Below, one piece after another: positions 8,723 through 43,806 of a DNA stretch of 64,000 bases. Origin of the DNA: an uncultured archaeon (GTDB lineage Archaea; Aenigmatarchaeota; Aenigmatarchaeia; CG10238-14); NCBI GenBank assembly GCA_964392445.1, contig CAYMPD010000003.1:2573-66572 (forward strand), given 5' to 3'. A program made the translations under genes and the position numbers. Numbering within the stretch: the stretch's first letter is position 1; each line of letters opens with the position of its first letter. The notes under the pieces are model-generated. The model was not told the DNA's origin, made no database searches, and worked only from the letters and a program-made list of their open reading frames with translations.

Positions 8723-8787
8723 TAATCACTAATTAGTAATACCTGCAGTTATATAAATAATTTTCTATTGTATAGAATATAGGTTTT

Positions 8788-9528
8788 TTACTGTCTTTCC
8801 ATCTGTTGAATGCTGGCCCTTACTTGATCTATCCTTGCCTTAACTTTATCTAAATTACTTTCTATTTTAGCTTTTTTTTCTGCATCATCGGTAGCTGATA
8901 ACTGTCTAAGCAATTGAGCTTCTGTAGCCATTAATTCCCTAAGTTGACGCTTATCTTGTTTTATAAGTTCCCATTTGGTCTCTGCAATTTGGGCTTCAGC
9001 TCCCATGCTTCCCCTAGCTTTGATGAACAAGAACCAAATACCCGTGAAAAATAGAAGTGCCCAAATACCAAAAGCGTATATAGGACCTATAGTAAAGATT
9101 ATTCCAACAAAATAACCGAAAATATGAACACGTCCAATAAAAATTATCATAAGAAAACTAAGAACCACGTTAATCCAATCCATTCCTCTACCAAATATTC
9201 TTAGTCTACTCATAAAACCGAAAGTAACTAAAAATACGGCTACAAATGGAACTAAAATGTCCATTAGGAATCTTGGTGGTCCCCAATTTCTCTCATAATA
9301 ATTGTCTCTTCCAAGTACTCTAAAATTAAATGCTCCGAAAAAATTCATGTTTTGTGTTGACTGAGGGAAACCAAGCCAATACAGGAAAAAGTTCACAAAA
9401 CAATCATATAACCCTCCATTACCTATCCCAGAACAGGCTGGAGTAAGAGGGAAAGGTGGTATAAGCTCAGCAAAAACCCAACTAAAACTAAGTAGAATAA
9501 CTAAAGTAGTGACAAATATCTTTTTCAT
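8788..9528 (-). CDS. membrane protein with C-terminal coiled coil
   Basis: Signal peptide, about 5 TM helices, then 80-aa coiled coil (…AEAQIAETKWELIKQDKRQLREL…). Confidence 0.45.
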   Translation of the reverse strand: MKKIFVTTLVILLSFSWVFAELIPPFPLTPACSGIGNGGLYDCFVNFFLYWLGFPQSTQNMNFFGAFNFRVLGRDNYYERNWGPPRFLMDILVPFVAVFLVTFGFMSRLRIFGRGMDWINVVLSFLMIIFIGRVHIFGYFVGIIFTIGPIYAFGIWALLFFTGIWFLFIKARGSMGAEAQIAETKWELIKQDKRQLRELMATEAQLLRQLSATDDAEKKAKIESNLDKVKARIDQVRASIQQMERQ

Positions 9529-9623
9529 CTACTCCACTGCTAATTAATTAGAATTCCCAATTATAAATTTGTTATTAATCGAATTTACAAAACTTAAAAT
9601 AAACACAAACCCAAAAATAACTT

Positions 9624-10226
9624 ATGAACCACAAGCAACTACTAATACCACTAATTCTTACACTGCTGCTAATAACACCTGTGTTTGCTGGTTACCTAGA
9701 CAACTGGTGGAGATGGCTTCATGTACCGTCAGAGTATGCTAAAGCACCCGATCTTCTTTACTTCCTTATGTTACCTTTCCTAGCCATCTGGGCGATAACC
9801 TGGGGACTGCTCACAAAAATAAAAATGTTTGAAAATACTCGAATCAACATGCTTCTTGCTCTTATCTTTGCCACCGCACTGATGTATTATGGATGGATGT
9901 TCAAAGTGGTTCATTTTCTTTTGAGTTTCGGTAGTGTTGTTGCGTTTATTGCGTTTATTGTGGTTTTTATCGTCGGGATAAAATTGTACTCCGAAGGAAA
10001 GATTAAAGGAGACTGGAAAGGATCTGCTCTGAAGGAATTGAGACAGAAAGAGAAAGAGTTAAAAGAGAAAAGAAGACTCCTGAAAGATTATCAGGGGGAT
10101 TTGAGGGGCGCGAGTAAAGAGACTAGGGATAAATTAACTCCAACAATAGATGATTTAAAAAATGAAATAAAAGAATTGGAACAAAGAATAGACACTTTAA
10201 GGGGAACTGTAGAAACAGATAAATAA
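9624..10226 (+). CDS. membrane protein with C-terminal coiled coil
   Basis: Signal peptide, about 4 TM helices, C-terminal coiled coil; same architecture as divergently transcribed 8788..9528. Confidence 0.45.
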   Translation: MNHKQLLIPLILTLLLITPVFAGYLDNWWRWLHVPSEYAKAPDLLYFLMLPFLAIWAITWGLLTKIKMFENTRINMLLALIFATALMYYGWMFKVVHFLLSFGSVVAFIAFIVVFIVGIKLYSEGKIKGDWKGSALKELRQKEKELKEKRRLLKDYQGDLRGASKETRDKLTPTIDDLKNEIKELEQRIDTLRGTVETDK

Positions 10227-10244
10227 CATCAATTTATTTAACTT

Positions 10245-10949
10245 TTGATTAGTAATTTTTGGTTGAGAGTTATGAGTATCTTCGATGGATTAACAGATAA
10301 TTTGTTTAGAAGAGTTCAACCAGAGGAATTAACTGATACCCAAGCTCAGCAAAGAGTAGAAGATACAGGAAGATCTGTTACCGAGAGAGTAGATGCTTTT
10401 GCAAGAAATTACCTTGCCCCTGACACTTATCAAAGATACAGGGATGGTTTAAGATCCTTAAGATATGATATCGAGAAGTTGCCTTCAAAAGTAGTCACAT
10501 TATATAACATGCTTACTGGTGAAGTTAAAAGATATTTTGAAGGTATTTTGGGTTTATATGACGAGGAAAGGAACAGAATTGGAGTGAATGAATATGTTGC
10601 AAAAGATCCAGAAAGTGAACAACTAGAACCTGTAATGGGTCATGAAGAAGTCCATCGTGCAACAAGAAACTGGTTAAGAGATTATTTTGATAGATTTGGT
10701 GAGAAAGCTAGAGGGGTTGTAGAAGGCTTTACAAGCTGGATTTCTCAGGAATTAGGTTATAATTCTAATGAATATCCGGGTCTTAAATATGCGGCTTATC
10801 AAACTCTGAGGAGATTAGGGGATAACGTATATGATGCTCTTTATAATGTGATTAATTTCAACATATATCCAGAAAGGGTTTTAGATACTTTTTACGACTC
10901 ATTAAGAGTTTTGGAACAAGAAAGATTGTTTTATACACCCGCGAATTGA
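10245..10949 (+). CDS. hypothetical protein with HExxH motif (possible zincin-like metallopeptidase)
   Basis: 234 aa; VMGHEEVHRATRNW contains HEEVH. Confidence 0.3.
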   Translation: MISNFWLRVMSIFDGLTDNLFRRVQPEELTDTQAQQRVEDTGRSVTERVDAFARNYLAPDTYQRYRDGLRSLRYDIEKLPSKVVTLYNMLTGEVKRYFEGILGLYDEERNRIGVNEYVAKDPESEQLEPVMGHEEVHRATRNWLRDYFDRFGEKARGVVEGFTSWISQELGYNSNEYPGLKYAAYQTLRRLGDNVYDALYNVINFNIYPERVLDTFYDSLRVLEQERLFYTPAN

Positions 10950-16469: not shown

Positions 16470-16585
16470 GTAAAATTGTAATTCACGTGACCCCCTCATT
16501 TCCAGTCGAGATTTCAGATATCACGGTGTTATATTCACGCATTTCACACCCCTTGGTTTCATGTCGAGATTACTTCACGTTAACC
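16470..16585. promoter_or_regulatory. cluster of three TTCACG motifs with two tandem ~40-bp units (TTCACG-n-CCCC-n-TTTC-n-GTCGAGATT)
   Basis: attcacgtgaccccctcatttccagtcgagattt … tattcacgcatttcacaccccttggtttcatgtcgagatta … cttcacgttaacc; lies upstream of minus-strand gene 16141..16404 and downstream of polB. Confidence 0.5.
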
Positions 16586-19291
16586 AGGAACAAACAACCT
16601 AGACTTCTTACTGCCATTCTTAAAAACAATCTCCCCTCCGCAAGAATTACATTTACCAGTTAAAGGAGGTCTTCTATAAACATTATTACAACTGTTGCAT
16701 ATGAAACCATCTATCTCCGAAACACTATCCTCAAAATCATCCTTCTGTTTATTATTTTTCATGGCTTCTAGTATACCAAGTTGTTTGCCTATACCCGTCA
16801 ACTCGGACTTACTGACCCTCAAAGCCTCAAAAACCCTTTCTAATGGGGGTAACAACTGACTTTCGATATAATATTTGGAATCTATTGGTATGCTATGTTC
16901 TTTAATGTAATCAGGGTCTTCTGCACGCTTGGATATCATCTGAACTCCTCTAACAATAACATAACCAACCCTATCACCTACACCTGGAGCAGAAGCTGGA
17001 TCCCTTTTCATCATTTTTTTAACTAATTCCACATGAGGCTGAACGCCCTTATACTTACTAGGAGATCTTGAGATGCTCTTGGTTATAACTAATTTTTCAA
17101 TTGGAATTTTACCCGATTTAAGGTCGTCAACAGTCTTTTTAACGAACTTTACTGCTTTCCTGACATCCTGTTCTTTAAGTATAATCTCGAGAACCTCTTT
17201 TAGTGTCTCAGAAACCAAATCACACCAGTCCCTCCTGACAGTTTCTATACCCTTAGTAAGAATACTCTCATCCCAACCATCAGCCATAGGTTCAAAGTTC
17301 CAAGCGGCATATCTTTTTTTGGCGAGTAGAAGAAGAACCTTAAAAATACTTTCAACCTTCATGTGAAGTACGTGATTTATTCCCTCGTTTATCGTCTCTG
17401 ATACCTCTTCCCCTACTTTAAAGGCTTCTTCTAGATCCTTTGTATCTAATTTAATCATTACGCTGTCCGTATCGCCATATATAACCTTATAATCAGTTTT
17501 TTTATGAACTATTTCCCTGCTTTTCTTAATCATATCCCTTCCAACACTCGTAATCCCACTCGCAATATCAATAACATAAAACCTCGCACGAATATAACCT
17601 GAATAACCGTAAAATGCATTAGCAACAGTCTTGAATGCATATTGTTTGGCATAGAGATAATTCTTCTTACTGTCAGTTTTCGCCTTCTTCATCTTTTTTT
17701 TAATTTTTCCCCTCGCATCCAGAAGATAATCTAAAACGTGTGGTAAAATTCCCTTCCTAACATCCCCAGTAACAAACCTAGAACCAAAAGGTGTCTCCTT
17801 GTATTCGATATCGTCTTTCTTCCCCCTCAGAAGCGTGGTTGGACAAATGTTAAAACTGATAACAATCGAAGGGTACATACTGTGAAAATCTAGATAAGTG
17901 GTACAAGTATCATGAAATCCAACATCCGGTTTTAGAACAAATGCTCCCTTCAAACCACTACTCCTTCTTTCAGCCTTTCTCCTAGATATCTCACGATTAT
18001 CCGGTCTACAAGGAATAATAAAATCCTTCTTGTTAAATTCTCTCAGAAGAATACTATCTATCCTTTCGGTTTCGCCCCTATACAGACAATCCTGAAGGGT
18101 TATTCCTGAAACTTTCGATATCTCTACAAACTTGTCCAACATACTTTTCTTAAACAATATCTTAAGAGGTAATTCAGCGTCCTTTCTACTGTAACTTAAC
18201 AATTTACCTAACTTATCACCATTATCATTCCAATAATCGGCTATCTCACTGTGTGCAACGTCAACCTTATCTTCACCTAAAACATTTTTTGATACGTCCC
18301 CCAAACCATATCTTTTCAGACCTTTGAACAAACCGAATTTGTTAGCGGCTTCTTTAACCAAACTATAAACATCTGCTGATACTCTCCCTGGTATTGTCAC
18401 TTTAGTTCTTCCCATAAATGTCGATGTCCGAATTGGTTTCTGATCACATCTACCTAATGTGTTGGGAACATTGTTCTCCTTTAATCTCGTATCAATATAT
18501 GGTAAATCGAAGTTATTGGTGTTATAACCTAGGATAATATCAGGATCGAATTGGTCAATAATTTTCACAAATTCCTCAAGCATTTCTTTCTCTGAATTAA
18601 AACTAACTATGTCGTCGTCATATTTCTTAATCTTCCTCGCGGCTAAAACTAGAGTGTTCCTGTTTTTGTACGAAGGAAAGAATGACATGCTTATGAGAAT
18701 AATTGGTTCTTTTTTTGGATTAGGTTCTGATCCACCGGTGAAATATGTTTCTATATCAAAACTTAGGTAATGGAATTTCATGTTTTCATCTTTGTCTATC
18801 TCTTTGAAACTTCTTGCCCTAAATTTTTTTGTTGTCTTCACGCTGTTTGTTTTTGTATAACTTCCTTCAACCTCATACCACTTCATCCCAAAAATGTTCA
18901 TATCAGCCATAAATCTGTACTTGAAAAGAATGTCAGCCTCAAATATTTCCTTTACGATTTTTTTTTCTTTTAAATTATCCCTGACTACTGGTGTTTTACT
19001 TGGATTGTTTAAAGTTAGTTTGAGAATTTTGGTTTTCTTCTCTTGGTATCCTATCGGAAGGAATTTTTTGACGTAACTCATCTTCACAACATACTGACTA
19101 AAGTTTTTCTTGGCATATTCCTTTACTTCATCGAATTTTTCCTCTTTTGGTAAAACGTAAAAATAAGGTTCAAAATCATCATAAAAAACACAGGTTGATT
19201 TTCCTTTATCAGTCCGCCCAAAGAGACGAATTATTGGTTTGTTGTTTACAAGAACATAATCCGAGTCGAGAACCTGAAATTTTATTTTCAT
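16580..19291 (-). CDS. polB: family B DNA polymerase
   Basis: Exo I FDIETY; motif A DFHSMYPSI; motif C YGDTDS; C-terminal Cys4 zinc finger; 903 aa. Confidence 0.95.
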   Translation of the reverse strand: MKIKFQVLDSDYVLVNNKPIIRLFGRTDKGKSTCVFYDDFEPYFYVLPKEEKFDEVKEYAKKNFSQYVVKMSYVKKFLPIGYQEKKTKILKLTLNNPSKTPVVRDNLKEKKIVKEIFEADILFKYRFMADMNIFGMKWYEVEGSYTKTNSVKTTKKFRARSFKEIDKDENMKFHYLSFDIETYFTGGSEPNPKKEPIILISMSFFPSYKNRNTLVLAARKIKKYDDDIVSFNSEKEMLEEFVKIIDQFDPDIILGYNTNNFDLPYIDTRLKENNVPNTLGRCDQKPIRTSTFMGRTKVTIPGRVSADVYSLVKEAANKFGLFKGLKRYGLGDVSKNVLGEDKVDVAHSEIADYWNDNGDKLGKLLSYSRKDAELPLKILFKKSMLDKFVEISKVSGITLQDCLYRGETERIDSILLREFNKKDFIIPCRPDNREISRRKAERRSSGLKGAFVLKPDVGFHDTCTTYLDFHSMYPSIVISFNICPTTLLRGKKDDIEYKETPFGSRFVTGDVRKGILPHVLDYLLDARGKIKKKMKKAKTDSKKNYLYAKQYAFKTVANAFYGYSGYIRARFYVIDIASGITSVGRDMIKKSREIVHKKTDYKVIYGDTDSVMIKLDTKDLEEAFKVGEEVSETINEGINHVLHMKVESIFKVLLLLAKKRYAAWNFEPMADGWDESILTKGIETVRRDWCDLVSETLKEVLEIILKEQDVRKAVKFVKKTVDDLKSGKIPIEKLVITKSISRSPSKYKGVQPHVELVKKMMKRDPASAPGVGDRVGYVIVRGVQMISKRAEDPDYIKEHSIPIDSKYYIESQLLPPLERVFEALRVSKSELTGIGKQLGILEAMKNNKQKDDFEDSVSEIDGFICNSCNNVYRRPPLTGKCNSCGGEIVFKNGSKKSRLFVPG

Positions 19292-19349
19292 GAGTGATTA
19301 TATAGGTGTTGAAGTTTTTATGCTATTGGGGAAGGTAAAAAAATGGTTT

Positions 19350-20384
19350 TTAAATACCCTTTTCTTCAATTTCTCTAGACTTCATGTTCACAATGAAATA
19401 TTTGTTTCTTTTGTTGTTTGAGATGATTGTGGTTCCATGATAATTCTTGTGGTAATTCTTCTCATTGGAAAACAATACTATATCTGGAATTTGTTCGAGG
19501 ACAAAATAACCAAGTAATCCTTCTTCTCTTATCAATCTCTTGTTCAGAGTTTGTTCCGTATTTACTTTCTTTGGTACTGTTAAAATTTTTATACCCCCTA
19601 CGTCAAACATAGAAGCGTTTTCGTCCTCTGATATCAAAAAAACATTATCAAATTCCTTTATGACCTCTTCATCCTCCCAACCACCGTAAATAAAAATAGG
19701 ATCGGTCTTCCTAGTTTTCTTTAAAATATCAATTAACTTCCCTTGTTTTTCTTCCTCAAGTGTTGATGGTTTGTAGAGATATATCAAGTTTACTTTTTTC
19801 TTTGTTTTTTTAATCTCCCTTGTCATAGATACTTCAGGATAAATGATTTTTTTGATGTAAATCTCTCCTTCTTTCCTTTCACATTTAATCCCAATTATAT
19901 CATCCAGTTCTATTTTATCCACTTCCTTTTTCAAGTCATCATCAAAAAAAATATTTGTTTCACCTGTCTCGTCTTCAACCACTAAATTATTCATGTTCTT
20001 TCTCCTGACCGACACTATCACCGAGAAATTGGTTGTTTTGGGTGTTATTTTATTAACAGAGATCATTTTTTTGAGTTGTGTGTTATTGAGTAATATTTCT
20101 TTTATTTTTGTATATATTTCTGAAAACTTTCTGGTGTAATCTTCTGTTTTTAATTTACCCTTCTCAAATGAGAATTCCCTGATCAACTCGACCTTGATTT
20201 TTTTATCTTTTTTTATGTCTTCCGATTTCTCCAAATGTTTTTTCGATACTATAAACGGTCTTGGGGTTAGGTTATGTACCAGAGAGAGATACTTTTCTGG
20301 GTTTTTGTTTACTATAGGCAAAGCTTCTTGGGACAACTGAAACCCATTATCCAGAAATAACTTAACTGTCTCTTCTTCTTTCAT
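19350..20384 (-). CDS. DP1-like (PolD small subunit / eukaryotic B-subunit-like) protein with apparently inactivated, truncated phosphoesterase domain
   Basis: N-terminal LFLDNGFQLSQEALPIV resembles DP1 N-domain; OB-fold segment FSVIVSVRRKNMNNLVVEDETGETNIFF; positions corresponding to PDE motifs (DxH, GD, GNHD) read LYKPST, IYGGWED, ISEDEN (catalytic residues absent). Confidence 0.45.
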   Translation of the reverse strand: MKEEETVKLFLDNGFQLSQEALPIVNKNPEKYLSLVHNLTPRPFIVSKKHLEKSEDIKKDKKIKVELIREFSFEKGKLKTEDYTRKFSEIYTKIKEILLNNTQLKKMISVNKITPKTTNFSVIVSVRRKNMNNLVVEDETGETNIFFDDDLKKEVDKIELDDIIGIKCERKEGEIYIKKIIYPEVSMTREIKKTKKKVNLIYLYKPSTLEEEKQGKLIDILKKTRKTDPIFIYGGWEDEEVIKEFDNVFLISEDENASMFDVGGIKILTVPKKVNTEQTLNKRLIREEGLLGYFVLEQIPDIVLFSNEKNYHKNYHGTTIISNNKRNKYFIVNMKSREIEEKGI

Positions 20385-21592
20385 TAAATCACTAGATTTT
20401 CCTCTAGAACCTTTTTGATTTTACTTTTAACATCATTCGCTACGCTGAGTTTTATATGTCTCGTCCTACCATATCGACCAAGAGAAACAACTTTGGCATT
20501 AATTATTCCGGTCATGTCCAATTCAGAAATCAAATCAGAAACTCTTCTTTGGGTTAAAGGACTCATACCCAGTTCATTACAATAATTCTCATAAACATCA
20601 TAAACATCCCCGGTTTGTATCTCCTCTCTTTTATCTTCAACCAAATTTATTATGGAATAGAGAACTATCTTACTTTGTTTTGGTAACGATTTCACTGATT
20701 CTAAAGTTCTATCATAATCTATTTTTCTAAGCGCGGCATCAACATGTTCCTCGGTGATTTTTTCATGTCTTTGTCTTTCAGCTAATTCACCCGCTACTCT
20801 CAACAGATCTAATGCCCTTCTCGCATCACCGTGTTCCTGTGCAGCCAGAGCAGAACATTTTGGTATAACCTCTTCTGATAAAACATCGCTACTAAAACCC
20901 ACTTGGCTTCTTTGTTTGAGTATCTCCTGTAACTCTAGAGCATTATATGGAGGGAATAATATTTCTTCCTCGCCCAAAGAACTCTTTACGCGAGGATCCA
21001 AAATATCAACAAAACTCAGATCGTTGGTAATACCTATAACAGATACACTTGCTTGTTGCAAGTCTTGATTTATCCTTGTGAAATTATAAAGAAAATCGTC
21101 GCTCATTTTCTTAACCAATGTATCTATCTCATCAAGTATTATCACAACGACCCAATTCCGAGAATCAAGTACACGGAAAAAAGTATTGTAAACCTGTTGT
21201 GTTGGTAATCCGGTTGAGGGAACTTCCTGTCCTAGGAGCCTACACAGCTCGGCCATTAACCTATATTCTGTATCAGCTGTTTTCTTCATCTTACAATTAA
21301 TATAAAGAATTTTTACTGGTGTTGTGCCTTGGTTTGACATCTTTTCTAGTTCCTGACCCACATATTTAGAAACTAATGTTTTCCCAGTTCCCGTTAGACC
21401 ATATATGAACACATTCGACGGTTTTGCTCCTTTAAGAGATGGGGCTAATATTGATGCTAAGTTGTTGATTTGTTTGTTTCTATGAGGAATGTCGTTTGGA
21501 GTAAAATGAGAATTTAATGCTTTTCTATCCTTGAAAACCGGGTTTGTTTTTTTGATGAAATCTTGAAAAATTAACTGTGCTTCGTTGTCCAT
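20384..21592 (-). CDS. orc1: Orc1/Cdc6 replication initiator
   Basis: Walker A IYGLTGTGKT; Walker B ILDEID; sensor/GDARRALDLLR; C-terminal winged helix; 402 aa. Confidence 0.9.
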   Translation of the reverse strand: MDNEAQLIFQDFIKKTNPVFKDRKALNSHFTPNDIPHRNKQINNLASILAPSLKGAKPSNVFIYGLTGTGKTLVSKYVGQELEKMSNQGTTPVKILYINCKMKKTADTEYRLMAELCRLLGQEVPSTGLPTQQVYNTFFRVLDSRNWVVVIILDEIDTLVKKMSDDFLYNFTRINQDLQQASVSVIGITNDLSFVDILDPRVKSSLGEEEILFPPYNALELQEILKQRSQVGFSSDVLSEEVIPKCSALAAQEHGDARRALDLLRVAGELAERQRHEKITEEHVDAALRKIDYDRTLESVKSLPKQSKIVLYSIINLVEDKREEIQTGDVYDVYENYCNELGMSPLTQRRVSDLISELDMTGIINAKVVSLGRYGRTRHIKLSVANDVKSKIKKVLEENLVI

Positions 21593-23529: not shown

Positions 23530-23880
23530 TTGGTTTTAATGTTCACCTTTCATAATATCGAAAAATTGTTAGAGGATTTATTAGATTTCTCAGTAATTGT
23601 AGAGGGGAAAAGAGATAAATTAGCTTTAGAAAAGTTAGGTTTAACGGATATTTTTACTATTTCAGGAAAACCAATAGAAGAATTGGTTGAAGGTTTACCT
23701 AAAGACAGAAAATACATAATCCTGACAGATTTTGATAAAGAAGGTGAATTGTTAAAATCGGATATAAAGAGATTTATGTCTAAGAACGGGTTCCGGGTTA
23801 ATGATAGACTCAGAATTTCCGTTAAGAACTCTTTTGATATTATACAAATCGAGGAGTTGAAGAAAATTTCAAAAATAATG
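23530..23880 (+). CDS. small Toprim-domain protein
   Basis: VIVEGKRDKLALEKLG…ILTDFDKEGE Toprim motifs; true 3' end uncertain (ORF call runs into dnaG in another frame). Confidence 0.5.
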
Positions 23881-23884
23881 GAGG

Positions 23885-25027
23885 ATGATTATTATGGGAA
23901 AATTAGCACAATCAACTATAAAATATTTAATAGAAGCAAAGTTCTCCACAGACGGCGCGGTGGAGAAACCAGATGTGATAGGCGCGGTTTTTGGACAAAC
24001 TGAGGGTTTGCTAGGACAGGATTTGGATCTAAGAGAGCTACAAAAAACTGGAAGAATAGGAAGAATTGAGGTTTCTCTAAAAGGAAACAAAGGTAAAACG
24101 AAAGGAAAAATAACAATTCCTTCCAGTCTAGATGCGGCAGAAACGGCTTTAATAGCAGCAGCGATAGAAACGATTGAAAGGATAGGTCCTTGTGATTCTT
24201 ATATAAAACTAGTTTCTGTTAATGATATAAGATCAGTTAAACGTGATTATGTCGTTGGTAGGGCAAAGAGGATTTTGAAGAGATTAATAGAAGATGAAAT
24301 ACCAAATACAATGGAATTGACGGACAAAATAAAGGAATCAGTGAGGACGGCAGAAATAATAAAATATAAGGGATTACCAGCAGGACCAGACGTAATAGAT
24401 TCAGATGAGATAATAATTGTAGAAGGAAGGGCAGATGTTATAAATCTACTTAGAAATGGTGTTAAAAACGTAGTAGCAATGGGTGGGGCAACAATACCTC
24501 ATACAGTAGTAGACTTATCTAAGGAGAAAATGACCACAGTTTTCCTGGATGGGGACAGAGGAGGAGATTTAATACTAAAAGAACTTCTTCAACTAACAAC
24601 AATCGATCATGTTGCAAGGGCACCTCACGGAAAAGAAGTTGAGGAATTAACCAAAAAAGAACTTTTCAAGGCATTAAGAGAGAAAACGCCGATCGGGAAT
24701 GTGGAGAAAGAAAAGATAAAGGATTTAGATACAAAGACCAAAAAGAAACTCAGTAAAACTCTCGAAAAGATGATGGGAACAAGGGCAGCATACATATTCG
24801 ATGAGAAAGTTAAGTTAAAACAAAAAATTCCATTAAAACAATTCAATGAAAAGAACGAGAAGATAGAGAAAGCAGAAATAATTTTAGTGGACGCGAAAAT
24901 AGATGAGGATTTAGTGGCTATAGCAGAAGAAAAGAAGATTAAATATCTGATAGGGAAAGATAAAAAGGAAGAATTCAAAACAAAGTTCCTTAAAATATAC
25001 ACAAAAAATGATTTGGTCACTGAATAG
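23885..25027 (+). CDS. dnaG: archaeal DnaG primase (Toprim)
   Basis: IIVEGRADVINLLRNG…VFLDGDRGGDLI Toprim core; N-terminal archaeal DnaG region; 380 aa. Confidence 0.85.
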   Translation: MIIMGKLAQSTIKYLIEAKFSTDGAVEKPDVIGAVFGQTEGLLGQDLDLRELQKTGRIGRIEVSLKGNKGKTKGKITIPSSLDAAETALIAAAIETIERIGPCDSYIKLVSVNDIRSVKRDYVVGRAKRILKRLIEDEIPNTMELTDKIKESVRTAEIIKYKGLPAGPDVIDSDEIIIVEGRADVINLLRNGVKNVVAMGGATIPHTVVDLSKEKMTTVFLDGDRGGDLILKELLQLTTIDHVARAPHGKEVEELTKKELFKALREKTPIGNVEKEKIKDLDTKTKKKLSKTLEKMMGTRAAYIFDEKVKLKQKIPLKQFNEKNEKIEKAEIILVDAKIDEDLVAIAEEKKIKYLIGKDKKEEFKTKFLKIYTKNDLVTE

Positions 25028-27706: not shown

Positions 27707-27970
27707 ATGGCTGAAAATAGGGTAAGAGCAAAAAATGTTGTTGAAAAAGTAGTCATTAGCGAAGAAACAGGTAAAAAATTTGGAATGGTAAGTAATGTTG
27801 ACTTTATCACTGAGAGTGGTGAACTTCTAAATATAGTGGTCGACGGTGCAACAAAGTCTCTTAGGGAACTTAACCTCAAGACAGACGAGAAGGGAAGAAT
27901 TCTTGTTCCATTCAGTGCAGTAAAATCCATTGGAGATTTTGTAATAGTAAGTGAGAATGAATTGATTTAG
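27707..27970 (+). CDS. PRC-barrel domain protein
   Basis: 87 aa; GKKFGMVSNVDFITESGELLNIVV…ILVPFSAVKSIGDFVIV PRC-barrel pattern; paralog at 46397..46675. Confidence 0.55.
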   Translation: MAENRVRAKNVVEKVVISEETGKKFGMVSNVDFITESGELLNIVVDGATKSLRELNLKTDEKGRILVPFSAVKSIGDFVIVSENELI

Positions 27971-29028
27971 AAGTTTATTTTTTCATCTATCTTCAAATTC
28001 GGTGATCTATCTACTTTATCCAATTCTTTGACAAATTCATTTCTTTTACTTCTGTAATAAGCACAAACACCAATCATAGCAGCGTTATCAGTGCATAGTT
28101 CTTTGGATGGAGTTATTACTTTAACACCTAACTTTCTCATTGATTTTCTAAATCTTCTTCTTATGTAAATATTTGAAATCACACCACCACCTAGAATCAA
28201 TTGTTTAGGATTATATTCTTCAACCGCCTTTTCCACCTTCAGAATCAAGGAATCTGCTATTGTTTTTTGGAAGGATGCACAAAAATCTGGAACAATATCA
28301 CTAAAATCATCTCCATACTTTTTCTTGAGTTTCTTTATCTTAATGACACAAGCGGTCTTTAAACCAGAATAACTGAAATTATAATCCCTTCTTCTCACCA
28401 TTGGTATCGGGAGTTCAAATCTTTCTGGGTCACCTTTTTTCGCAAATTCTTCAATCACTGATCCACCAGGATAACCGAGCATTAATGGTCTAGCAACCTT
28501 ATCAAAGGCTTCTCCTACAGCATCATCCAAAGTTCTCCCGATCAGCTTGTATTTACCATGATCTTCCATCAGAACTATTTCTGTATGTCCGCCAGACACA
28601 AGAACACACATAATTGGAAATTTCAAATCATTTTTCAGATTACCGTAATAATTCCCTTTACTGTTCTTTGCGAGATTACTGTAAATATGTCCTTCCATGT
28701 GGTTGACGAGGATAAGAGGTTTATTGTATTTTTCTGATAATTCTTTAATTTTCTTTATCCCGACTTCAAGTGCAATAGCAAGCCCAGGACCAATAGTTAC
28801 TGTAAAAGCATCTAGGTCTTGGATACCAATTTTCGCTCTTTTCAAAGCCAATTCTATTACCGGTTCTATTCTTTCCTTATGCGCTCTTTTGGCTATTATT
28901 GGAACTACTCCTCGCCATTTTTTGTGAATATCAACTTGAGAAGAAACAATATTAGAAAGCACCCAATCGTTTTTGCAAACCGAGGCACTTGTTTCATCAC
29001 ATGAGGTATCTACTGCTAATATTTTCAT
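27967..29028 (-). CDS. tsaD: tRNA N6-adenosine threonylcarbamoyltransferase, bacterial TsaD-like
   Basis: MKILAVDTSCDETSASV start and VNHMEGH metal-binding motif match bacterial TsaD rather than archaeal Kae1; VSGGHTEIV; start chosen at the internal Met (ORF track extends 13 codons upstream). Confidence 0.75.
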   Translation of the reverse strand: MKILAVDTSCDETSASVCKNDWVLSNIVSSQVDIHKKWRGVVPIIAKRAHKERIEPVIELALKRAKIGIQDLDAFTVTIGPGLAIALEVGIKKIKELSEKYNKPLILVNHMEGHIYSNLAKNSKGNYYGNLKNDLKFPIMCVLVSGGHTEIVLMEDHGKYKLIGRTLDDAVGEAFDKVARPLMLGYPGGSVIEEFAKKGDPERFELPIPMVRRRDYNFSYSGLKTACVIKIKKLKKKYGDDFSDIVPDFCASFQKTIADSLILKVEKAVEEYNPKQLILGGGVISNIYIRRRFRKSMRKLGVKVITPSKELCTDNAAMIGVCAYYRSKRNEFVKELDKVDRSPNLKIDEKINF

Positions 29029-29029
29029 T

Positions 29030-29845
29030 TTAATCACTTGTTTTAGAAATGGTTGATAATCTTCCACCCGTCAGAATATTTGAGGACCAGTCTCGCTCTT
29101 TTCTAATCATTATTCTGAAACCTTTGTCGAGTATTTTTTTAGTGTATAAGTTCTTATCGAAGTCTTTAATTATCTTACTTATTTTGATTAATGAATCCAC
29201 GATCTCTTCCTGTTCACTATTTCCCTCAGCCTCAACTTTTATATGAATTGGCGCGAAACATTTAGGATCACTATTTTCTAAAATATAACAGCCTTCATAA
29301 CCCCCAATAATCCTGGATATAGTATCCTTAAGTCCAATTATTTCTTTTTGTGTGAATAGTAGGTTCTCATCGGGTTTAGCATCTTGGTGAAACGTTTCAT
29401 CATCTTTATACATCTTACTTGTTTCTACAACCCAAAGATGGAGGTATGCGACCGACATCACCACACAATGATTTTTATCACTTGGAGAAATCTTGTCTCT
29501 TAGTACATTAATGAACATTATAAGGTCATTCGAATCGAGATTATTTAATGTGGTTCTTATCATATCTCTGAGTAATTCTAATTGTTCTTCGTTTTCTGGA
29601 TCGAATTTAAGAAACGAGACTAATTTATGTTGTTTGAGAAAATAGTTGTTCGGGACTATTAAATCCGCTTTTGACTCCTCACCTTTAACTATTGAAGGCC
29701 TGTTGATGTTCGGGAATCCCGTGCAAATATTACCTTTGTACAATCCAGGAACTTCTTTATTTTTATACTGATAATCCCAAAAAGCTTTTTCAGCTGGTCC
29801 TAAGGATATTCCTAAGTTCTCGTAAAAATCTTCTATTTCTCTCAC
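29030..29845 (-). CDS. hypothetical protein in t6A gene cluster
   Basis: 271 aa, between tsaC-tsaE fusion and tsaD with 4-nt overlaps on both sides; no motif recognised. Confidence 0.4.
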   Translation of the reverse strand: MREIEDFYENLGISLGPAEKAFWDYQYKNKEVPGLYKGNICTGFPNINRPSIVKGEESKADLIVPNNYFLKQHKLVSFLKFDPENEEQLELLRDMIRTTLNNLDSNDLIMFINVLRDKISPSDKNHCVVMSVAYLHLWVVETSKMYKDDETFHQDAKPDENLLFTQKEIIGLKDTISRIIGGYEGCYILENSDPKCFAPIHIKVEAEGNSEQEEIVDSLIKISKIIKDFDKNLYTKKILDKGFRIMIRKERDWSSNILTGGRLSTISKTSD

Positions 29846-30918
29846 AATATCTCCTCGCTATATTCTATTCTCCTAACATTATCTTTTTTCTGATAATAAA
29901 ACTTAATCCAGATTAGATTGTAAGAATTTTTTAGTTCCTTTAATTTTTTAGACATCTTTTCAGCCCATTCTATCGCTATTATATTTGAACCTTTAATCAT
30001 ATTTTCAAAGCCTAATTCTACAAATTCTTCTTTTGGATCAAACATTCTATAAGTATCAACATGGAAAAACTTACCATCATTCCTTTTCAAATTGTATTCT
30101 CTTACTAAAACAAATGTAGGTGAAAGAATGGTTTCATCTATACTTAGAGCTTCTGCTAATCCCTTTGTGAAAACAGTCTTACCCGTGCCTAGTTCTCCTT
30201 GGAGTGCAAATAATATAGGTTTATCGTCATTTTTTTTCTCTTCCATGAGCCTTTTTGCTAGTTCACGTGTTCCACGTTCGGAATGTGAAGTAAATACCTC
30301 AGGTGATTTTAGGTTCACATCACCTTCACGCAGGATTTTAGGTTCGTTTAATGTAGTGTTAATGACAGTTGAAGGTTTGTTTTTGGGAAGTTCGCCCGCA
30401 TCTATGATTAGATCTATTAGATTTTGTTGTTTTTTGGATATATTATCAAGAATATCTTTGATCGTGTAGGGAGTTTTTTTGTAGGACATATTTGCCGAAG
30501 TAGCAGTGATAGGCTTTCCAAATTCTTTGATTATTCTTAGAACTAAATCATATTTCGGTATTCTTACTCCTAGTGTCCCATCTTCCCCCTCAACCTTATC
30601 CGCTAATTTATGCTTGCCTCGAGAAACCACTGTCATTGGGCCAGGTAAATAATTATCATAGATATTCTCTGAAGTCTCATTCAATTCTACATATTTTCTT
30701 GCCATTTTTTTACTATCTACAGCCACTGATAGCGCTTTACCAAATCTTTTCGATTTGTAGTCAAGGAGTTTATTCACGGATTTCTGGTTTGTAACATCTG
30801 CACCTATACCATAACAAGTTTCGGTCGGATAAACAACTAAACCGTCCGATCTTAGAATATTAACTGCTAAATCTATAACCTCTTTTTCATTATTTGACGT
30901 TAATTTCAATATTTTCAT
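29842..30918 (-). CDS. TsaC(YrdC/Sua5)–TsaE fusion protein
   Basis: N-terminal YrdC fold (VVYPTETCYGIGAD); C-terminal TsaE/YjeE P-loop domain (LQGELGTGKTVFTKGL, ILSPTFVLVREY, FFHVDTYRM, IEWAEK). Confidence 0.7.
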   Translation of the reverse strand: MKILKLTSNNEKEVIDLAVNILRSDGLVVYPTETCYGIGADVTNQKSVNKLLDYKSKRFGKALSVAVDSKKMARKYVELNETSENIYDNYLPGPMTVVSRGKHKLADKVEGEDGTLGVRIPKYDLVLRIIKEFGKPITATSANMSYKKTPYTIKDILDNISKKQQNLIDLIIDAGELPKNKPSTVINTTLNEPKILREGDVNLKSPEVFTSHSERGTRELAKRLMEEKKNDDKPILFALQGELGTGKTVFTKGLAEALSIDETILSPTFVLVREYNLKRNDGKFFHVDTYRMFDPKEEFVELGFENMIKGSNIIAIEWAEKMSKKLKELKNSYNLIWIKFYYQKKDNVRRIEYSEEIL

Positions 30919-30939: not shown

Positions 30940-31266
30940 TCATTTACCGAATATTTCTTTATCCAGTCTATTGGATAAATAACTTTTTTTGATTAACTCA
31001 TCCATTGATAGTTTTTCTAAACCTTTTTTCAACCGAATTAAGTAAACTTGAAGACGGAAGGATTCGAAGCTAGAACCTTCTTTAACATCTAATAGACTAT
31101 CTAGGCGTTTAATAGAGCGGGAAACAGCCATAGGATAAATATTGAGAGTTCTAGATATTTCTCTGACAGTTAATCTAGCTTCTGGTGTTTTTGAAACTTC
31201 TTTTAGCAATTTTAGTACCATTAAATCATATTTTCTTTGTTTTTTAGAGACTTTTTTCTTTGTCAT
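30940..31266 (-). CDS. winged-helix transcriptional regulator
   Basis: 108 aa; HTH ARLTVREISRTLNIYPMAVSRSIKRLDS. Confidence 0.5.
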   Translation of the reverse strand: MTKKKVSKKQRKYDLMVLKLLKEVSKTPEARLTVREISRTLNIYPMAVSRSIKRLDSLLDVKEGSSFESFRLQVYLIRLKKGLEKLSMDELIKKSYLSNRLDKEIFGK

Positions 31267-32904: not shown

Positions 32905-35094
32905 GTGAATAAAATGAAAATAGACTCACTCCAAAAATATGATATACCAAACGAATTTATCGAGAAGTTCAAAGAACAAGGAATTGAAAAATTATATGAG
33001 CCACAAAAAAAATCACTGAAAAAAGGTTTGTTAGATTTCAAAAATCAAATAATCGCAGCACCAACAGCTTCAGGAAAAACACTCATCGCAACATTAGCAG
33101 CGATAAAAAAAATGAAAAAAGAGAGATCAAAAGTAATTTATCTAGTTCCACTTATTGCTTTGGCCGGTGAGAAATGGAATTACTACAGAGAATTGTTCAA
33201 GGGAACTGGGTTTCGAGTTGCCATATCTACAGGTGATCTTGACTCTACCAGTGATTGGTTAGCTAATTACGATTTAATCATCATGACCACCGAGAAATGC
33301 GATTCTTTGATGCGGCATGGTGCTAGGTGGATTAATAATGTGGGACTGATTATTGCTGACGAAATTCATTTGCTTAACGATTCTTCACGTGGCCCAACAC
33401 TTGAAATTACTTTAACAAGACTTCGTGAGACTGTTCCTAATGCTCAGATTCTTGGACTATCAGCAACTATCTCCAATGTTGATGAAATATCAGAATGGTT
33501 GGAAGCTGTGTCTGTGAAATCGGATTTTCGTCCGGTTGAACTACATGAAGGGGTATACTTTGACAACAAAATCCAGTTTTTTGGAAGGGATGATTACGAA
33601 CTTAAAGAAAGTTTGCCGCCTGAAAAAGCGATACTTGACAACACTGTGAACTTAAGGAAGCAGTCCTTATATTTTCTTTCAACACGGAGAAACACTGAAT
33701 CCCTTGCGAGAAGGTTGGGTAACTTTAACAAAAAATTATTGAAGAAAAATGAGAAGGAACAATTGGAAAAATTATCTGAGGAAATTTTAAATGTACTCGA
33801 AAAACCGACAAGACAGTGTAAAAAGTTAGCAAGATATATCAAAAATGGAATCGCTTTTCATCATGCTGGAATTCTAAATCGGCAGAAGTCTTTGATAGAG
33901 GATAATTTCCGAAAAGGTTTAATCAGATCAATCTGTGCTACTCCAACCTTGGCAATGGGAGTTTCGCTTCCGGCATTTCGCGTAATAATCCGAGATATTC
34001 AAAGATATTATTCTGGTCACGGGATGAAATACATACCTATTATTGAATACAAACAGTTTGCTGGGCGCGCAGGTAGACCAGAGTATGATGAATTTGGAGA
34101 ATCAATATTGGTTGCAAAAAGTGAAACCGATGCCCATAGACTTACTGAGACTTATATTTTTGGTGAACCCGAGGACGTTTATTCCAAACTTTCACTTGAA
34201 CCGATTCTTCGTATGCATACTCTTGCTCTTATAGCCTCAGGTTTTATCGACTCCAGAGAGGGACTAATGGAATTTTTTGAAAAAACTTTTTATGCTTACC
34301 AGTATGGCGAGATGACTGATATAGAACTCATATTAGATAAAATTCTAGAATTACTCTTCAAGTTTAAATTCCTTCAGCAAAAGAAAGACAAAATCGTCCC
34401 GACAAGAATTGGTAAGAGAGTATCAGAATTATACTTGGATCCAATAACTGCTCACCATTTCATAAAATCCCTTAGAAAAGCCAATGAGTCCACATCTTTA
34501 TTCTCTTTCATCCATACCATGGCTAACACACTAGAAATGAGGCCTTTACTTAGAATCAGAAAAAAAGATTATGATGAGATAAATGATAAAATAGTGAGCT
34601 CAGTTTTCTTGGAAAAAATACCCGAAGAGTGGGATTTGGAATATGATACTTTTATGAAAAGTGTTAAGACATCAATGTTATTCGAATTGTGGATTAACGA
34701 GGAAACCGAAGATAAAATACTTTCGAAGTTTCGAGTAGCACCAGGAGACTTATATTACAAACTGAAGAATGCTGATTGGTTGCTTTACTCTTTGAATGAA
34801 CTAACTTTGTTGTTGGGAAAGAAAAAAGTACTTGGTAAGATTCGGAAGTTGAGGGTGAGGATGAAGTATGGGGTAAGAGAGGAATTATTACCTTTGGTTA
34901 GACTCAAGAAAATAGGTAGAGTTAGGGCGAGGAGATTATATGACCATAATCTCAAATCAGTATCGGATTTAAGAAAAATACCTTTATCAAGTCTTTCAAA
35001 AATTATAGGACCTAAAATTGCTAACTCAATTAAAAAACAGTTGGGGGAAGATCATAAGGAGATTAAAGAACAAAAACAATTGACTTTGGGGTAA
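32905..35094 (+). CDS. hel308: Hel308/Ski2-type DNA helicase
   Basis: Walker A APTASGKTL; DEIH box ADEIHLLND; superfamily-2 helicase motifs; 729 aa with C-terminal HhH-like domain. Confidence 0.85.
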   Translation: MNKMKIDSLQKYDIPNEFIEKFKEQGIEKLYEPQKKSLKKGLLDFKNQIIAAPTASGKTLIATLAAIKKMKKERSKVIYLVPLIALAGEKWNYYRELFKGTGFRVAISTGDLDSTSDWLANYDLIIMTTEKCDSLMRHGARWINNVGLIIADEIHLLNDSSRGPTLEITLTRLRETVPNAQILGLSATISNVDEISEWLEAVSVKSDFRPVELHEGVYFDNKIQFFGRDDYELKESLPPEKAILDNTVNLRKQSLYFLSTRRNTESLARRLGNFNKKLLKKNEKEQLEKLSEEILNVLEKPTRQCKKLARYIKNGIAFHHAGILNRQKSLIEDNFRKGLIRSICATPTLAMGVSLPAFRVIIRDIQRYYSGHGMKYIPIIEYKQFAGRAGRPEYDEFGESILVAKSETDAHRLTETYIFGEPEDVYSKLSLEPILRMHTLALIASGFIDSREGLMEFFEKTFYAYQYGEMTDIELILDKILELLFKFKFLQQKKDKIVPTRIGKRVSELYLDPITAHHFIKSLRKANESTSLFSFIHTMANTLEMRPLLRIRKKDYDEINDKIVSSVFLEKIPEEWDLEYDTFMKSVKTSMLFELWINEETEDKILSKFRVAPGDLYYKLKNADWLLYSLNELTLLLGKKKVLGKIRKLRVRMKYGVREELLPLVRLKKIGRVRARRLYDHNLKSVSDLRKIPLSSLSKIIGPKIANSIKKQLGEDHKEIKEQKQLTLG

Positions 35095-35161
35095 TGGGCT
35101 AATTTGGCTATACTTCGAGCTTCGGGGGTTCGCGATCTGGGTTCAAATCCCAGTTACCCCA
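35088..35161 (+). tRNA. tRNA-like gene, possible tRNA-Pro(CGG) with aberrant D-arm
   Basis: Perfect 7-bp acceptor stem (ggggtaa/ttacccc); T-arm ctggg-ttcaaat-cccag; anticodon arm cgagc-ttcgggg-gttcg (anticodon CGG); D-stem forms only 2 pairs; 5' end overlaps hel308 stop codon. Confidence 0.45.
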
Positions 35162-35363
35162 CTAGAATAAAACCTACCTAAAAATACGAAAAAAAGAAAA
35201 AATCAACTTAAAGCAAAAATTGCCATACTAACAATACCAATACAACAACTAAAACAACCCAAACAATTTTGTTCTTGAGTAGTCCTTTGAAATCCATATC
35301 TACACCTTAATATCTTATTTTCGTTTCCCAGTTTATAACCTTGCTGTTACCCGAGAGAAGTAG

Positions 35364-40349: not shown

Positions 40350-41051
40350 TTATAATTTCAAAGATACAAATGGAAATGTATTTTTAAATCTATTTGCATC
40401 CTCCTCTTTCCCAATTATCACATCAAAGATGGGTTTTTTAGATACGTTGTGCTTCCAGCTAGATGTAAATGGAGAAATATTAAATCTATTTAATGCTTTT
40501 TTGATATCAGAGGAGAGAGCTTCACTTGAAGACGTGAATGAAATTCTACCGTTCTTATTCCCTCCATCGGCTAAGAAAAGACCAGACAGGAAGAATTTCA
40601 AACAACCCATGTTCTTCTTTATATAATCTGGGATTTTTACTTTATCGCTTTTTTTACCACATGGTATCTCGAAAATTTTGTTGAATAAGGTCCAAACAGC
40701 TTTATTATCAAACTCAATTTTCCATCTAATTTTCCTATTCTCTCTTGTGTCTAGTTTTTTCTTTAGTTTAAGATCAAGTTTGAAAGTTTTATTAAATTTT
40801 AACATCACAAGTTTCATCAATCCTCTATTGGCCATTTCTATAGTTATTCTAAATCTACCATCCTTTGTTAAATGACCATCTCCGATAATGATTCCGGAAA
40901 GAAAGGACAAATCAGGAGTTACATTTATAGGTATTTCTCTAATATTTTTACCCCAGAAATTTGATTTACACCAAATTTTTTCCGAATTTTTCTTAACAAC
41001 TGCTATTCTAGTATCCTTTTCTATTTCTTTGACAAATTCGTTGAAATTCAT
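40350..41051 (-). CDS. LAGLIDADG homing endonuclease (two-motif, single chain)
   Basis: LSGIIIGDGHL and LSGLFLADGG motifs; stop codon abuts the 5' end of tRNA-Leu. Confidence 0.7.
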   Translation of the reverse strand: MNFNEFVKEIEKDTRIAVVKKNSEKIWCKSNFWGKNIREIPINVTPDLSFLSGIIIGDGHLTKDGRFRITIEMANRGLMKLVMLKFNKTFKLDLKLKKKLDTRENRKIRWKIEFDNKAVWTLFNKIFEIPCGKKSDKVKIPDYIKKNMGCLKFFLSGLFLADGGNKNGRISFTSSSEALSSDIKKALNRFNISPFTSSWKHNVSKKPIFDVIIGKEEDANRFKNTFPFVSLKL

Positions 41052-41842: not shown

Positions 41843-41861
41843 GTTGTTTTTAGGAATTAAG

Positions 41862-41949
41862 TGCTCCCGACGGGATTCGAACCCGTGTCCTCGGCTATCT
41901 TCCAGAAGTCGAAAGGCCGATATCCTTGGCCGGACTAGACTACGGGAGC
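41862..41949 (-). tRNA. tRNA-Glu(TTC) with 13-nt intron
   Basis: Acceptor gctcccg/cgggagc; anticodon stem tcggc/gccga; loop CTTTCGA; intron ACTTCTGGAAGAT (internal cttc/gaag helix); T-arm acggg-ttcgaat-cccgt; 88 nt. Confidence 0.7.
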
Positions 41950-41954
41950 TTGAG

Positions 41955-42043
41955 TGGGCCGAACAGGATTTGAACCTGTGATTTCTGCCATTTTGATTCG
42001 AAAATCGTCAAGGCAGCGTCTTAACCAACTGGACCATCGGCCC
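41955..42043 (-). tRNA. tRNA-Val(GAC) with 15-nt intron
   Basis: Acceptor gggccga/tcggccc; anticodon stem ctgcc/ggcag; loop TTGACGA; 15-nt insert; T-arm acagg-ttcaaat-cctgt; 89 nt. Confidence 0.7.
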
Positions 42044-42510: not shown

Positions 42511-43806
42511 ATGATAATGATTCAAATGCAAAATCAAATCCCCTATCAGGAAGTAGAAGAATGTAGAGTATGTGGGGGTACGGATTTCACACCATATCTG
42601 GATTTAGGAGAAATGCCTTTGGTTAATAGACTTTTAACAGACCCAAACGATCCTGATCCAAAATTTCCTTTAGAAGTACTCTACTGTAATGATTGTTCAA
42701 ATTCTCAGTTAAGTGTAGTAGTAGACCCATCCATTCTTTTCAGAGATTATGTATATCGTTCCTCAATGTCACAAACTTATATGGATCATTGTGCCCGTAT
42801 GGCTCGATTATCAGAAAGGGAATTGGATATGTCAGAGGGCGATCTTGTAGTAGATATAGCGTCTAATGATGGAGCTCTTCTTCAACAATTTAAACCATAT
42901 AATGTTAGAGTACTCGGGATTGACCCAGCAACTAATCTTGCTAAAATTGCGACTGAAGAAGGAATACCGACAATCGCAGAATTTTGGCCGGGTGATTTAC
43001 CAGAAAGAATAATTGAAGAGTATGGTCCAGCTAAAATAATTACTGCAACTAATGTATTTGCTCATGTGGGTGATATCCAAGGATTTGCAAGGGGGGTTTA
43101 TGATCTACTTGATGAAGAGGGAACCTTTATGGTTGAATTTCCATATATGGTAGATTTGATTCAAAATGGTTGTTTTGATACAATTTATCATGAACATCTA
43201 TCATATTTTTTAGTTTCTCCCCTAGTAGAACTTTTTAGAAGAGTTGGTTTAGATATAGCTCGGGTCGATAGATTACCAATACATGGTGGGAGCGTAAGAC
43301 TTTATGTAAGAAAAGACGGTTCTATAGAAACTTCTGTGGAAGAAAATCTTTTAATGGAGGAGGAAATGGGATACCATGATATTAGTAGATATTTAGGATT
43401 TGCAGAAAAAACAGATGAAGTTAGAGAAGATTTATTAGATCTACTAGAACAAAAACAGACTAGGGGAGAAAGTGTGGCAGCTTTTGGCGCAGCTGCCAAG
43501 GGGACTATTTTATTAAATTATTGTGATATTGGACCAGAAATCATTCCGTATATTGTAGATGATACACCTGAAAAACAAGGAAAATATATACCTGGGATGC
43601 ATATACCTGTGGTCTCTAGAGATAGATTGACCAGATCAATACCTGATAATCTCTTAATCTTACCATGGAACTTTTTAACAGAAATTCTATCAAATACAGC
43701 ATCTTTTAGATCTACAGGGGGTTCGTATATAGCTGCTATACCTCGTGTCCGTGTAATAAAACCTGAGAGAATCAAAACGGATAGAGTACCTGTAGCCCAG
43801 ATTTAA
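42511..43806 (+). CDS. sugar C-methyltransferase-like SAM-dependent methyltransferase (TylC3/TcaB9-like architecture)
   Basis: N-terminal Cys4 zinc-binding region (CRVCGG…CNDCSNSQL); central SAM-binding fold (VVDIASNDGAL); C-methyltransferase-like C-terminus; 431 aa. Confidence 0.55.
   Translation: MIMIQMQNQIPYQEVEECRVCGGTDFTPYLDLGEMPLVNRLLTDPNDPDPKFPLEVLYCNDCSNSQLSVVVDPSILFRDYVYRSSMSQTYMDHCARMARLSERELDMSEGDLVVDIASNDGALLQQFKPYNVRVLGIDPATNLAKIATEEGIPTIAEFWPGDLPERIIEEYGPAKIITATNVFAHVGDIQGFARGVYDLLDEEGTFMVEFPYMVDLIQNGCFDTIYHEHLSYFLVSPLVELFRRVGLDIARVDRLPIHGGSVRLYVRKDGSIETSVEENLLMEEEMGYHDISRYLGFAEKTDEVREDLLDLLEQKQTRGESVAAFGAAAKGTILLNYCDIGPEIIPYIVDDTPEKQGKYIPGMHIPVVSRDRLTRSIPDNLLILPWNFLTEILSNTASFRSTGGSYIAAIPRVRVIKPERIKTDRVPVAQI

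Follow-up and report, generated by a model that had tools for sequence, protein, structure and literature searches.

The window analysed here, a 64,000-nucleotide stretch of contig CAYMPD010000003.1 from an uncultured archaeon, carries at 27967-30918 of its minus strand three tightly coupled open reading frames (ORFs) that encode, in order, a fusion of TsaC and TsaE (358 amino acids; 29842-30918), an orphan protein of 271 amino acids (29030-29845), and a bacterial-type TsaD (353 amino acids; 27967-29028). TsaC, TsaE, and TsaD belong to the machinery for N6-threonylcarbamoyladenosine (t6A), one of the few universal tRNA modifications, whose accessory proteins are in the textbook account split by domain, with TsaB and TsaE in bacteria and KEOPS in archaea and eukaryotes. 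The three genes adjoin closely at both junctions. At the first, the sequence GTGA (29845-29842, preceded by GAGGAG) is the stop of the tsaC-tsaE gene overlapping the start of the middle gene; at the second, a single base separates the stop codon TAA of the middle gene (29032-29030) from the tsaD start codon at 29028, giving the junction TAA-A-ATG (29026-29032). A first-pass annotation of this DNA, made from its letters alone, had described the 271-amino acid gene as translationally coupled on both sides, and the two junctions confirm that description.

The fusion protein is composed of a TsaC (YrdC-type) domain at residues 21-199 (30322-30858, minus strand; Pfam Sua5_yciO_yrdC, PF01300, E 1e-45) and a TsaE (YjeE) P-loop domain at residues 212-339 (29902-30285, minus strand; PF02367, E 4e-30). 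It exceeds the NCBIfam equivalog cut-offs both for threonylcarbamoyl-AMP (TC-AMP) synthase (TIGR00057, 172.9 vs 123.2 bits) and for TsaE (TIGR00150, 88.1 vs 60.1 bits). The TsaC part is of the single-domain type: PF01300 and PF02367 were the only domains detected, no SUA5 domain follows the first of them, and TsaE occupies the usual SUA5 place. In the PDB, the TsaC domain is best matched by MTH1692 (103 bits) and by Sua5/TsaC enzymes, and the TsaE domain matches the TsaE chains 5np9, 1htw, and 6n9a_E with E-values of 1e-11 to 1e-16. A Walker A sequence is present in the TsaE domain along with SPTF, HVDTYR, and IEW motifs, and all four stretches that the first-pass annotation had quoted (GELGTGKT, the Walker A sequence, and SPTFVLVREY, HVDTYRM, and IEWAE) are found in the translation. 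Its reading of the gene as a YrdC/Sua5–TsaE fusion thus holds for both domains, including the C-terminal one, for which it had proposed a check against TsaE profiles.

The product of the third gene is a TsaD of bacterial type as opposed to Kae1, as had also been proposed, a class assignment that we base on hidden Markov model cut-offs and on the ranking of PDB scores. The protein passes the bacterial equivalog TIGR03723 (367.6 bits, cut-off 296.1) and falls below both the archaeal Kae1 model TIGR03722 (174.4 bits, cut-off 375) and the model for Kae1-Bud32 fusions (162.1 bits, cut-off 447). Among PDB chains, the bacterial TsaD proteins of Aquifex, Thermotoga, Salmonella, and Escherichia coli score 211-244 bits, compared with 95-133 bits for Kae1 and 105 bits for Qri7. 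It shares 37% of its residues with E. coli TsaD, the catalytic motifs being in register, such that HMEGH and CTDNAAMI line up with H111/H115 and D300 of the E. coli enzyme. We place its true start at the ATG at 29028 (353 amino acids, beginning MKILAVDTSC) instead of the upstream GTG at 29067, because this start agrees with the 352-353-amino acid length of homologues and with the N-terminus of E. coli TsaD. The window also encodes a substrate-type tRNA for t6A, a tRNA-Ser(GCU) with U36-A37-A38.

The 271-amino acid protein proved as unannotatable by sequence as it had first appeared: the window protein has no NCBIfam match, none of the 13 members of its family matches any Pfam model at E≤10, and a PDB profile search gave noise only. 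The family is very small, with about 13 sequences in all and, in one search, nine clusters at 90% identity; an exhaustive profile search of 1.84 billion proteins found only seven true representatives, and the profile matched two of 185,579 species genomes. A 2655-amino acid protein (P0256) with seven repeated weak matches (E 2.7e-7) to positions 167-216 of the profile was judged spurious, the matches being probably compositional. The position of the middle gene is constant: it lies directly upstream of tsaD in all eight contexts, at 29-75% identity and in both domains, and directly downstream of tsaCE in all six contexts whose upstream side is visible. The protein diverges faster than its neighbours, falling to 29% identity where TsaD keeps 50%.

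Structure prediction offers a candidate fold for this family. A first AlphaFold2 (AF2) model built from nine close sequences was poor (predicted local distance difference test score, pLDDT, of 60.6) and was discarded; with four divergent members added, the resulting 13-sequence alignment gave a confident model with a pLDDT of 89.6 and a predicted TM-score (pTM) of 0.90. When this model was compared with the PDB by Foldseek, the top seven matches and the match at rank 13 were all members of the HIT superfamily (probabilities 0.77-0.99), with ranks 8-12 at a probability of at most 0.13. These HIT matches include the GalT-type uridylyltransferases 6k5z, 6k9z, 1hxp, and 1gup, the DUF4931 protein 4qvu, and the DcpS structure 1st0, and the best match in the independent BFVD library was a viral DcpS (probability 0.96); Foldseek E-values were modest (3e-3 to 2e-2), and TM-scores were 0.3-0.5. 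From the model and the structural matches, we consider with moderate to good confidence that the protein adopts a HIT-superfamily alpha+beta fold, predicted as two HIT-like half-domains in tandem (GalT/DUF4931/DcpS-like). The segment Y134-L-H136-L-W138-V-V is invariant in all 13 sequences (the His136 codon lies at 29438-29440, minus strand), and E19, D61, N113, K118, R244, and R248 are further invariant or near-invariant polar residues. We propose that His136 is the counterpart of the central, nucleophilic histidine of the HIT motif: as in the superfamily, it lies within the pattern phi-H-phi-x-phi-phi on the last strand predicted for the first half, and the N-terminal stretch x-N-I...A-D-L-I-V-P-[NK] resembles the F-x-D-I...H-x-L-V-I-P-K of HIT proteins. 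Alignment of the family by hhalign with GalT, HinT, and a DPANN HIT protein gave nothing significant; the best local match, itself not significant, laid YLHLWVV on HAHFHVV of the DPANN protein, and residues 45-67, which contain the N-terminal stretch, were weakly collinear with F-R-D-I...H-I-L-I-I-P-N of HinT. The family also differs from known HIT proteins in having tyrosine and tryptophan in place of the flanking histidines of the triad, in being much shorter than GalT, and in its association with t6A genes, which is new for the superfamily.

The suggestion that the middle protein might substitute for TsaB does not survive as a claim of homology. No TsaB (TIGR03725) signal was seen with NCBIfam and no PF00814 signal with Pfam (13 members, E≤10), hhalign gave the family a probability of 0.2% against E. 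coli TsaB, the predicted fold is HIT-like and not ASKHA (acetate and sugar kinase/Hsp70/actin) by AF2 and Foldseek, and two-gene cassettes without the middle protein exist, which means that it is not a universal TsaB replacement. Neither TsaB nor a second PF00814 paralogue was found in the 64-kb window or in the flanks of 6-10 kb on either side of related cassettes. This lack of a paralogue, together with the tight coupling of the middle gene to tsaD and the faster evolution of its product relative to its partners, which is frequent in adaptor subunits, would fit a non-homologous structural replacement that binds and stabilises TsaD and completes the docking surface for TsaE, with no role for a nucleotide pocket. 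We regard such a replacement as unlikely, since the protein has neither an ASKHA fold nor any similarity to TsaB, since equally divergent cassettes in DPANN archaea and bacteria do without the middle gene and have no TsaB nearby, and since an invariant set of His, Arg, Tyr, Trp, and Asp residues, placed in a HIT-like fold, looks more like a ligand site than a mere interface.

A bacterial-type module on an archaeal contig could in principle be an artefact of assembly or binning in which a bacterial fragment was joined to archaeal DNA, and the closest relatives of this TsaD beyond its own clade are indeed bacterial. However, the cluster is flanked on both sides by archaeal genes, which on this contig include GatD/GatE, PolB, Orc1/Cdc6, an archaeal DnaG, Hel308, aIF2-alpha, TFB, the small and large RFC subunits, and NreA; DnaG (23885-25027, plus strand) and Hel308 (32905-35094) lie within 3-4 kb of the cluster, one on each side. 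GC content stays flat at about 0.34 across the cluster, and two independent Joint Genome Institute (JGI) assemblies (loci L002 and L003) have their genes in the same order from LemA/HtpX through DnaG. The three-gene cassette is also present in a different context in an NCBI metagenome-assembled genome (MAG) titled 'uncultured archaeon' (L001, identical to L010), and the nearest homologues that bear names are from Candidatus Aenigmarchaeota. Archaeal neighbours, uniform GC content, and synteny in independent assemblies make a chimeric contig so improbable that we give this explanation almost no weight, and the placement of the module in an archaeal genome, already part of the first-pass annotation, stands.

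The cassette is far from confined to this genome. The TsaC+TsaE architecture is found in over 120 protein clusters (50% identity or higher), and every named cluster among them is archaeal (Aenigmarchaeota, Diapherotrites, or simply 'archaeon'). In four loci (L006 and L007, named Diapherotrites, and L008 and L009, the former assigned to archaea by its Dph6 equivalog), tsaD comes immediately after the fusion, with no middle gene in between. The cassette also lies on contigs with clearly bacterial genes: L013 carries the fusion next to tsaD alongside a bacterial TrpRS, RicT/YaaT, and an M23 DD-endopeptidase, and L005 carries the fusion, tsaD, and the middle gene alongside bacterial TyrRS and MnmA at a GC content of 0.5. 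The complete three-gene cassette is also present on a 2963-bp contig (L011, CAZKVS010000064.1) labelled 'Candidatus Saccharibacteria', a weak label on so short a contig. These bacterial contigs are probably of the type found in the candidate phyla radiation (CPR), and the TsaCE–TsaD cassette is shared across domains and is not one isolated acquisition. In L006, a canonical HIT protein (PF01230/DcpS_C) is encoded two genes downstream of tsaD on the opposite strand (8921-9373, minus strand), which may be coincidence.

Outside its own clade, the window TsaD has 55-59% identity with proteins that bear the names Parcubacteria, Patescibacteria, Microgenomates, or 'bacterium', and one of these (L012) has clearly bacterial neighbours (PolA, FtsH, and DivIC). 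In a neighbor-joining (NJ) tree of TsaD from CPR bacteria, DPANN archaea, and E. coli (100 bootstraps), the Aenigmarchaeota-like clade that holds the window sequence (86% support; 75% with L019 included) falls inside a CPR and DPANN radiation from which E. coli is distant. L006 and L008 group together (100%), sequences whose names and context are bacterial form a clade of their own (98%), and L004, L005, L011, and L013 join one Parcubacteria-named TsaD (92%). The TsaD proteins linked to the middle gene fall into two separate supported clades, the one at 86% (or 75% with L019) and the one at 92%. The earlier proposal of horizontal acquisition is likely in its essence, given the CPR-named relatives of TsaD and the cassettes on bacterial contigs, and it needs amending in that this was not an isolated event. 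Read most simply, the cassette reflects an old inter-domain transfer between CPR-like bacteria and DPANN archaea, most likely in the direction from bacteria to archaea. A bacterial source is the more parsimonious because nearly all bacteria have TsaE and archaea have been reported to lack it (PMC4615747), and the match between the GC content of the cassette and that of its host indicates that any transfer is old. The opposite history, in which a TsaD/TsaE-type system was ancestral in DPANN archaea or moved from them to CPR bacteria, would be compatible with the poorly supported deep branching of CPR and DPANN TsaD, with the fusion being very common in DPANN, and with the archaeal origin of the best PDB match of the TsaC domain (MTH1692). 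We hold this history to be improbable, as this TsaD exceeds the cut-off of the bacterial equivalog and lies far from Kae1, and as TsaE, present in nearly all bacteria, has been reported missing from other archaea (PMC4615747).

The reading that we favour on balance, if with clear reservations, is that a t6A37 operon of bacterial ancestry, obtained through an old CPR-linked transfer, works in an Aenigmarchaeota-like archaeon of the ultrasmall DPANN group with a HIT-like, adenylate-binding accessory protein. Several observations weigh against it. The absence of TsaB and KEOPS holds for 64 kb and for the flanks of 6-10 kb on either side of relatives' cassettes only, and Pcc1 homologues have been reported in some MAGs of Aenigmarchaeota, Diapherotrites, and Woesearchaeota. 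The backbone of the TsaD tree, built without a Kae1 outgroup, is poorly supported (19-38%), and the number and direction of transfers are thus not fixed by it. For the accessory protein, no HIT, GalP_UDP_transf (GalT), DUF4931, or DcpS model of Pfam was matched by any of the 13 members at E≤10; of the triad, only the central histidine remains, and divergent members have Asp at the position of His201 in the second half, which makes catalysis by the middle protein uncertain. The first of these points bears on another explanation, namely that the bacterial-type module is auxiliary or a relic and that the organism still obtains its t6A from a KEOPS complex encoded elsewhere in its genome. The window covers some 64 kb of that genome, within a contig of 93 kb, and a survey describes the subunits of KEOPS as conserved across all archaeal phyla (PMC10989989), which, with the Pcc1 reports, would accord with this explanation. 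We nevertheless judge it the less probable one by a considerable degree, although it is the strongest of the alternatives that we weighed: the catalytic motifs of the module are intact and its genes under clear purifying selection over many lineages, two redundant t6A systems would be unexpected in strongly reduced DPANN genomes, and none of the KEOPS genes (Kae1, Bud32, Cgi121, and Pcc1) is among the 47 window ORFs scanned. A tblastn search with TsaD likewise found no second gene of the TsaD/Kae1 family in the window.

If the operon of bacterial ancestry is the working t6A system, a plausible cycle can be sketched from the known bacterial one. The TsaC domain would make TC-AMP from threonine, bicarbonate, and ATP, and the fused TsaE would dock on TsaD in its ATP state, as in the bacterial TsaBDE cycle, where the docking of TsaE on TsaD is ATP-dependent (PMC9654439). 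Because TsaC is tethered to TsaE, docking would also carry TsaC to the TsaD active site, and the labile TC-AMP could be handed over during the 'reset' step of TsaE. ATP hydrolysis would free TsaCE, after which a tRNA, for example the tRNA-Ser(GCU) of the window, would bind and be modified. As no TsaB was seen in the window or near related cassettes, TsaD is probably a Qri7-like homodimer or paired with the 271-amino acid protein. The latter would be a lineage-restricted accessory subunit with a predicted pocket involving His136, Arg244, and Arg248, and this putative pocket may bind an adenylate (TC-AMP or AMP) and stabilise, hand over, or proofread the intermediate. The substrates of HIT enzymes are conjugates of the alpha-phosphate of nucleotides, including acyl-adenylates, and TC-AMP is itself an unstable acyl-adenylate, which is why we propose an adenylate-binding carrier or proofreader. 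Binding of tRNA by the middle protein was set aside, its pI ranging from 5.0 to 9.1 across the family. A wider generalisation, which we offer as a speculation with the odds against it, is that TsaCE and TsaD, free of both TsaB and KEOPS, are the t6A machinery of many DPANN archaea and of some CPR bacteria, and that in some lineages a HIT-fold subunit binds TC-AMP and carries or proofreads it. If true, no other protein of the HIT family would have been dedicated to tRNA modification before this one, and it would offer a natural explanation of how a labile adenylate gets from TsaC to TsaD.

The system resembles several known ones in part. With the TsaB-TsaC-TsaD-TsaE system of bacteria (E. coli, Bacillus subtilis, Thermotoga maritima), it shares homologues of TsaC, TsaD, and TsaE that exceed equivalog cut-offs, the Walker A, SPTF, HxxxH, and C-terminal Asp motifs, and presumably the TC-AMP chemistry, whereas its host is archaeal, its TsaC and TsaE are joined in a single polypeptide, a TsaB was detected neither in the window nor beside related cassettes, and an extra HIT-like gene lies between tsaCE and tsaD. 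With KEOPS (Kae1-Bud32-Cgi121-Pcc1/Pcc2), the expected system of archaea, whose Bud32 ATPase is regarded as a functional analogue of TsaE, it has the end product t6A37 in common; unlike KEOPS, it has a transferase that scores 174 bits against a Kae1 cut-off of 375, its accessory proteins are unrelated, and no Bud32, Cgi121, or Pcc1 is present within the window. The minimal systems of mitochondria (Sua5/YRDC with a Qri7/OSGEPL1 homodimer) and of Mycoplasma haemofelis and M. suis, which lack TsaB and TsaE, are comparable in being apparently TsaB-free with a homodimeric transferase, but here TsaE is kept and fused to TsaC, and some lineages have a fourth protein. TobZ, HypF, and TsaN (TsaD-TsaC-SUA5-TcdA) likewise couple a YrdC-like module physically to the transferase and so limit the loss of labile adenylate; in them, the YrdC-like domain is fused to a Kae1/TsaD-like domain, while here its fusion partner is TsaE, a regulatory ATPase.

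The literature searched holds no description of a natural TsaC–TsaE fusion, of bacterial-type t6A genes in DPANN or CPR, or of a HIT-like t6A partner. Annotation pipelines already name such proteins TsaD or 'threonylcarbamoyl-AMP synthase', and one component of this variant of a known system, the HIT-like protein, had gone unrecognised. The claim made in reviews that archaea lack homologues of TsaE and TsaB (PMC4615747) is contradicted by a TsaCE–TsaD cassette that is widespread in archaea. The cassette is relevant, too, to deep phylogenies with DPANN taxa in which Kae1/TsaD (COG0533) serves as a universal, vertically inherited marker. That TsaC and TsaE are naturally fused argues that the synthesis of TC-AMP is physically coupled to the reset cycle of TsaE, and the HIT-like partner is a concrete, testable candidate for the handling of an unstable adenylate.

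Just upstream of the cassette, a co-oriented gene (30940-31266, minus strand) encodes a winged-helix protein of 108 amino acids (Pfam HTH_24, E 2.7e-7) that ends 21 nt before the tsaC-tsaE gene. In the syntenic locus L002, its homologue overlaps the start of TsaCE, and in L001, L004, and L005 no such gene lies upstream of the cassette; it is possible that it is the first gene or a regulator of the t6A operon. Among the tRNA genes of the window, two adjacent ones at 41861-42043 (minus strand) are 88-89 nt long, over the usual size, as if they contained introns. Rfam detects both, and ARAGORN detects only the tRNA-Arg(TCG) and not the gene at 41955-42043. A LAGLIDADG-domain ORF (40350-41051, minus strand) lies just downstream of the pair. 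At 35088-35162 (plus strand), ARAGORN reports a tRNA-Pro(CGG) that shares 7 nt with the end of the Hel308 ORF, without a report by Rfam at its gathering threshold.

Other genes of the contig show further peculiarities. Several long ORFs (in 709-2073, 8141-10949, 42511-43806, 60226-61995, and 62725-63903) have no Pfam or NCBIfam match, the longest product being 589 amino acids; such ORFs are typical of DPANN genomes. The SMC protein (5149-7650, minus strand), which ScpA (4440-5147, minus strand) adjoins, has only 833 amino acids where about 1170 are typical and aligns with its model in three stretches, as though its coiled coil had been shortened. A 157-amino acid ORF at 23530-24003 (plus strand) overlaps the start of the archaeal DnaG gene by about 120 nt, and the same overlap recurs in L002 (11826-13311), where the small product has a weak Toprim match; the pair may represent a split or frameshifted DnaG, or the small ORF a second Toprim protein. 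PolB, a 344-amino acid protein with a weak match to the small subunit of PolD, and Orc1/Cdc6 form a replication block at 16580-21592 (minus strand), near which a replication origin may lie.

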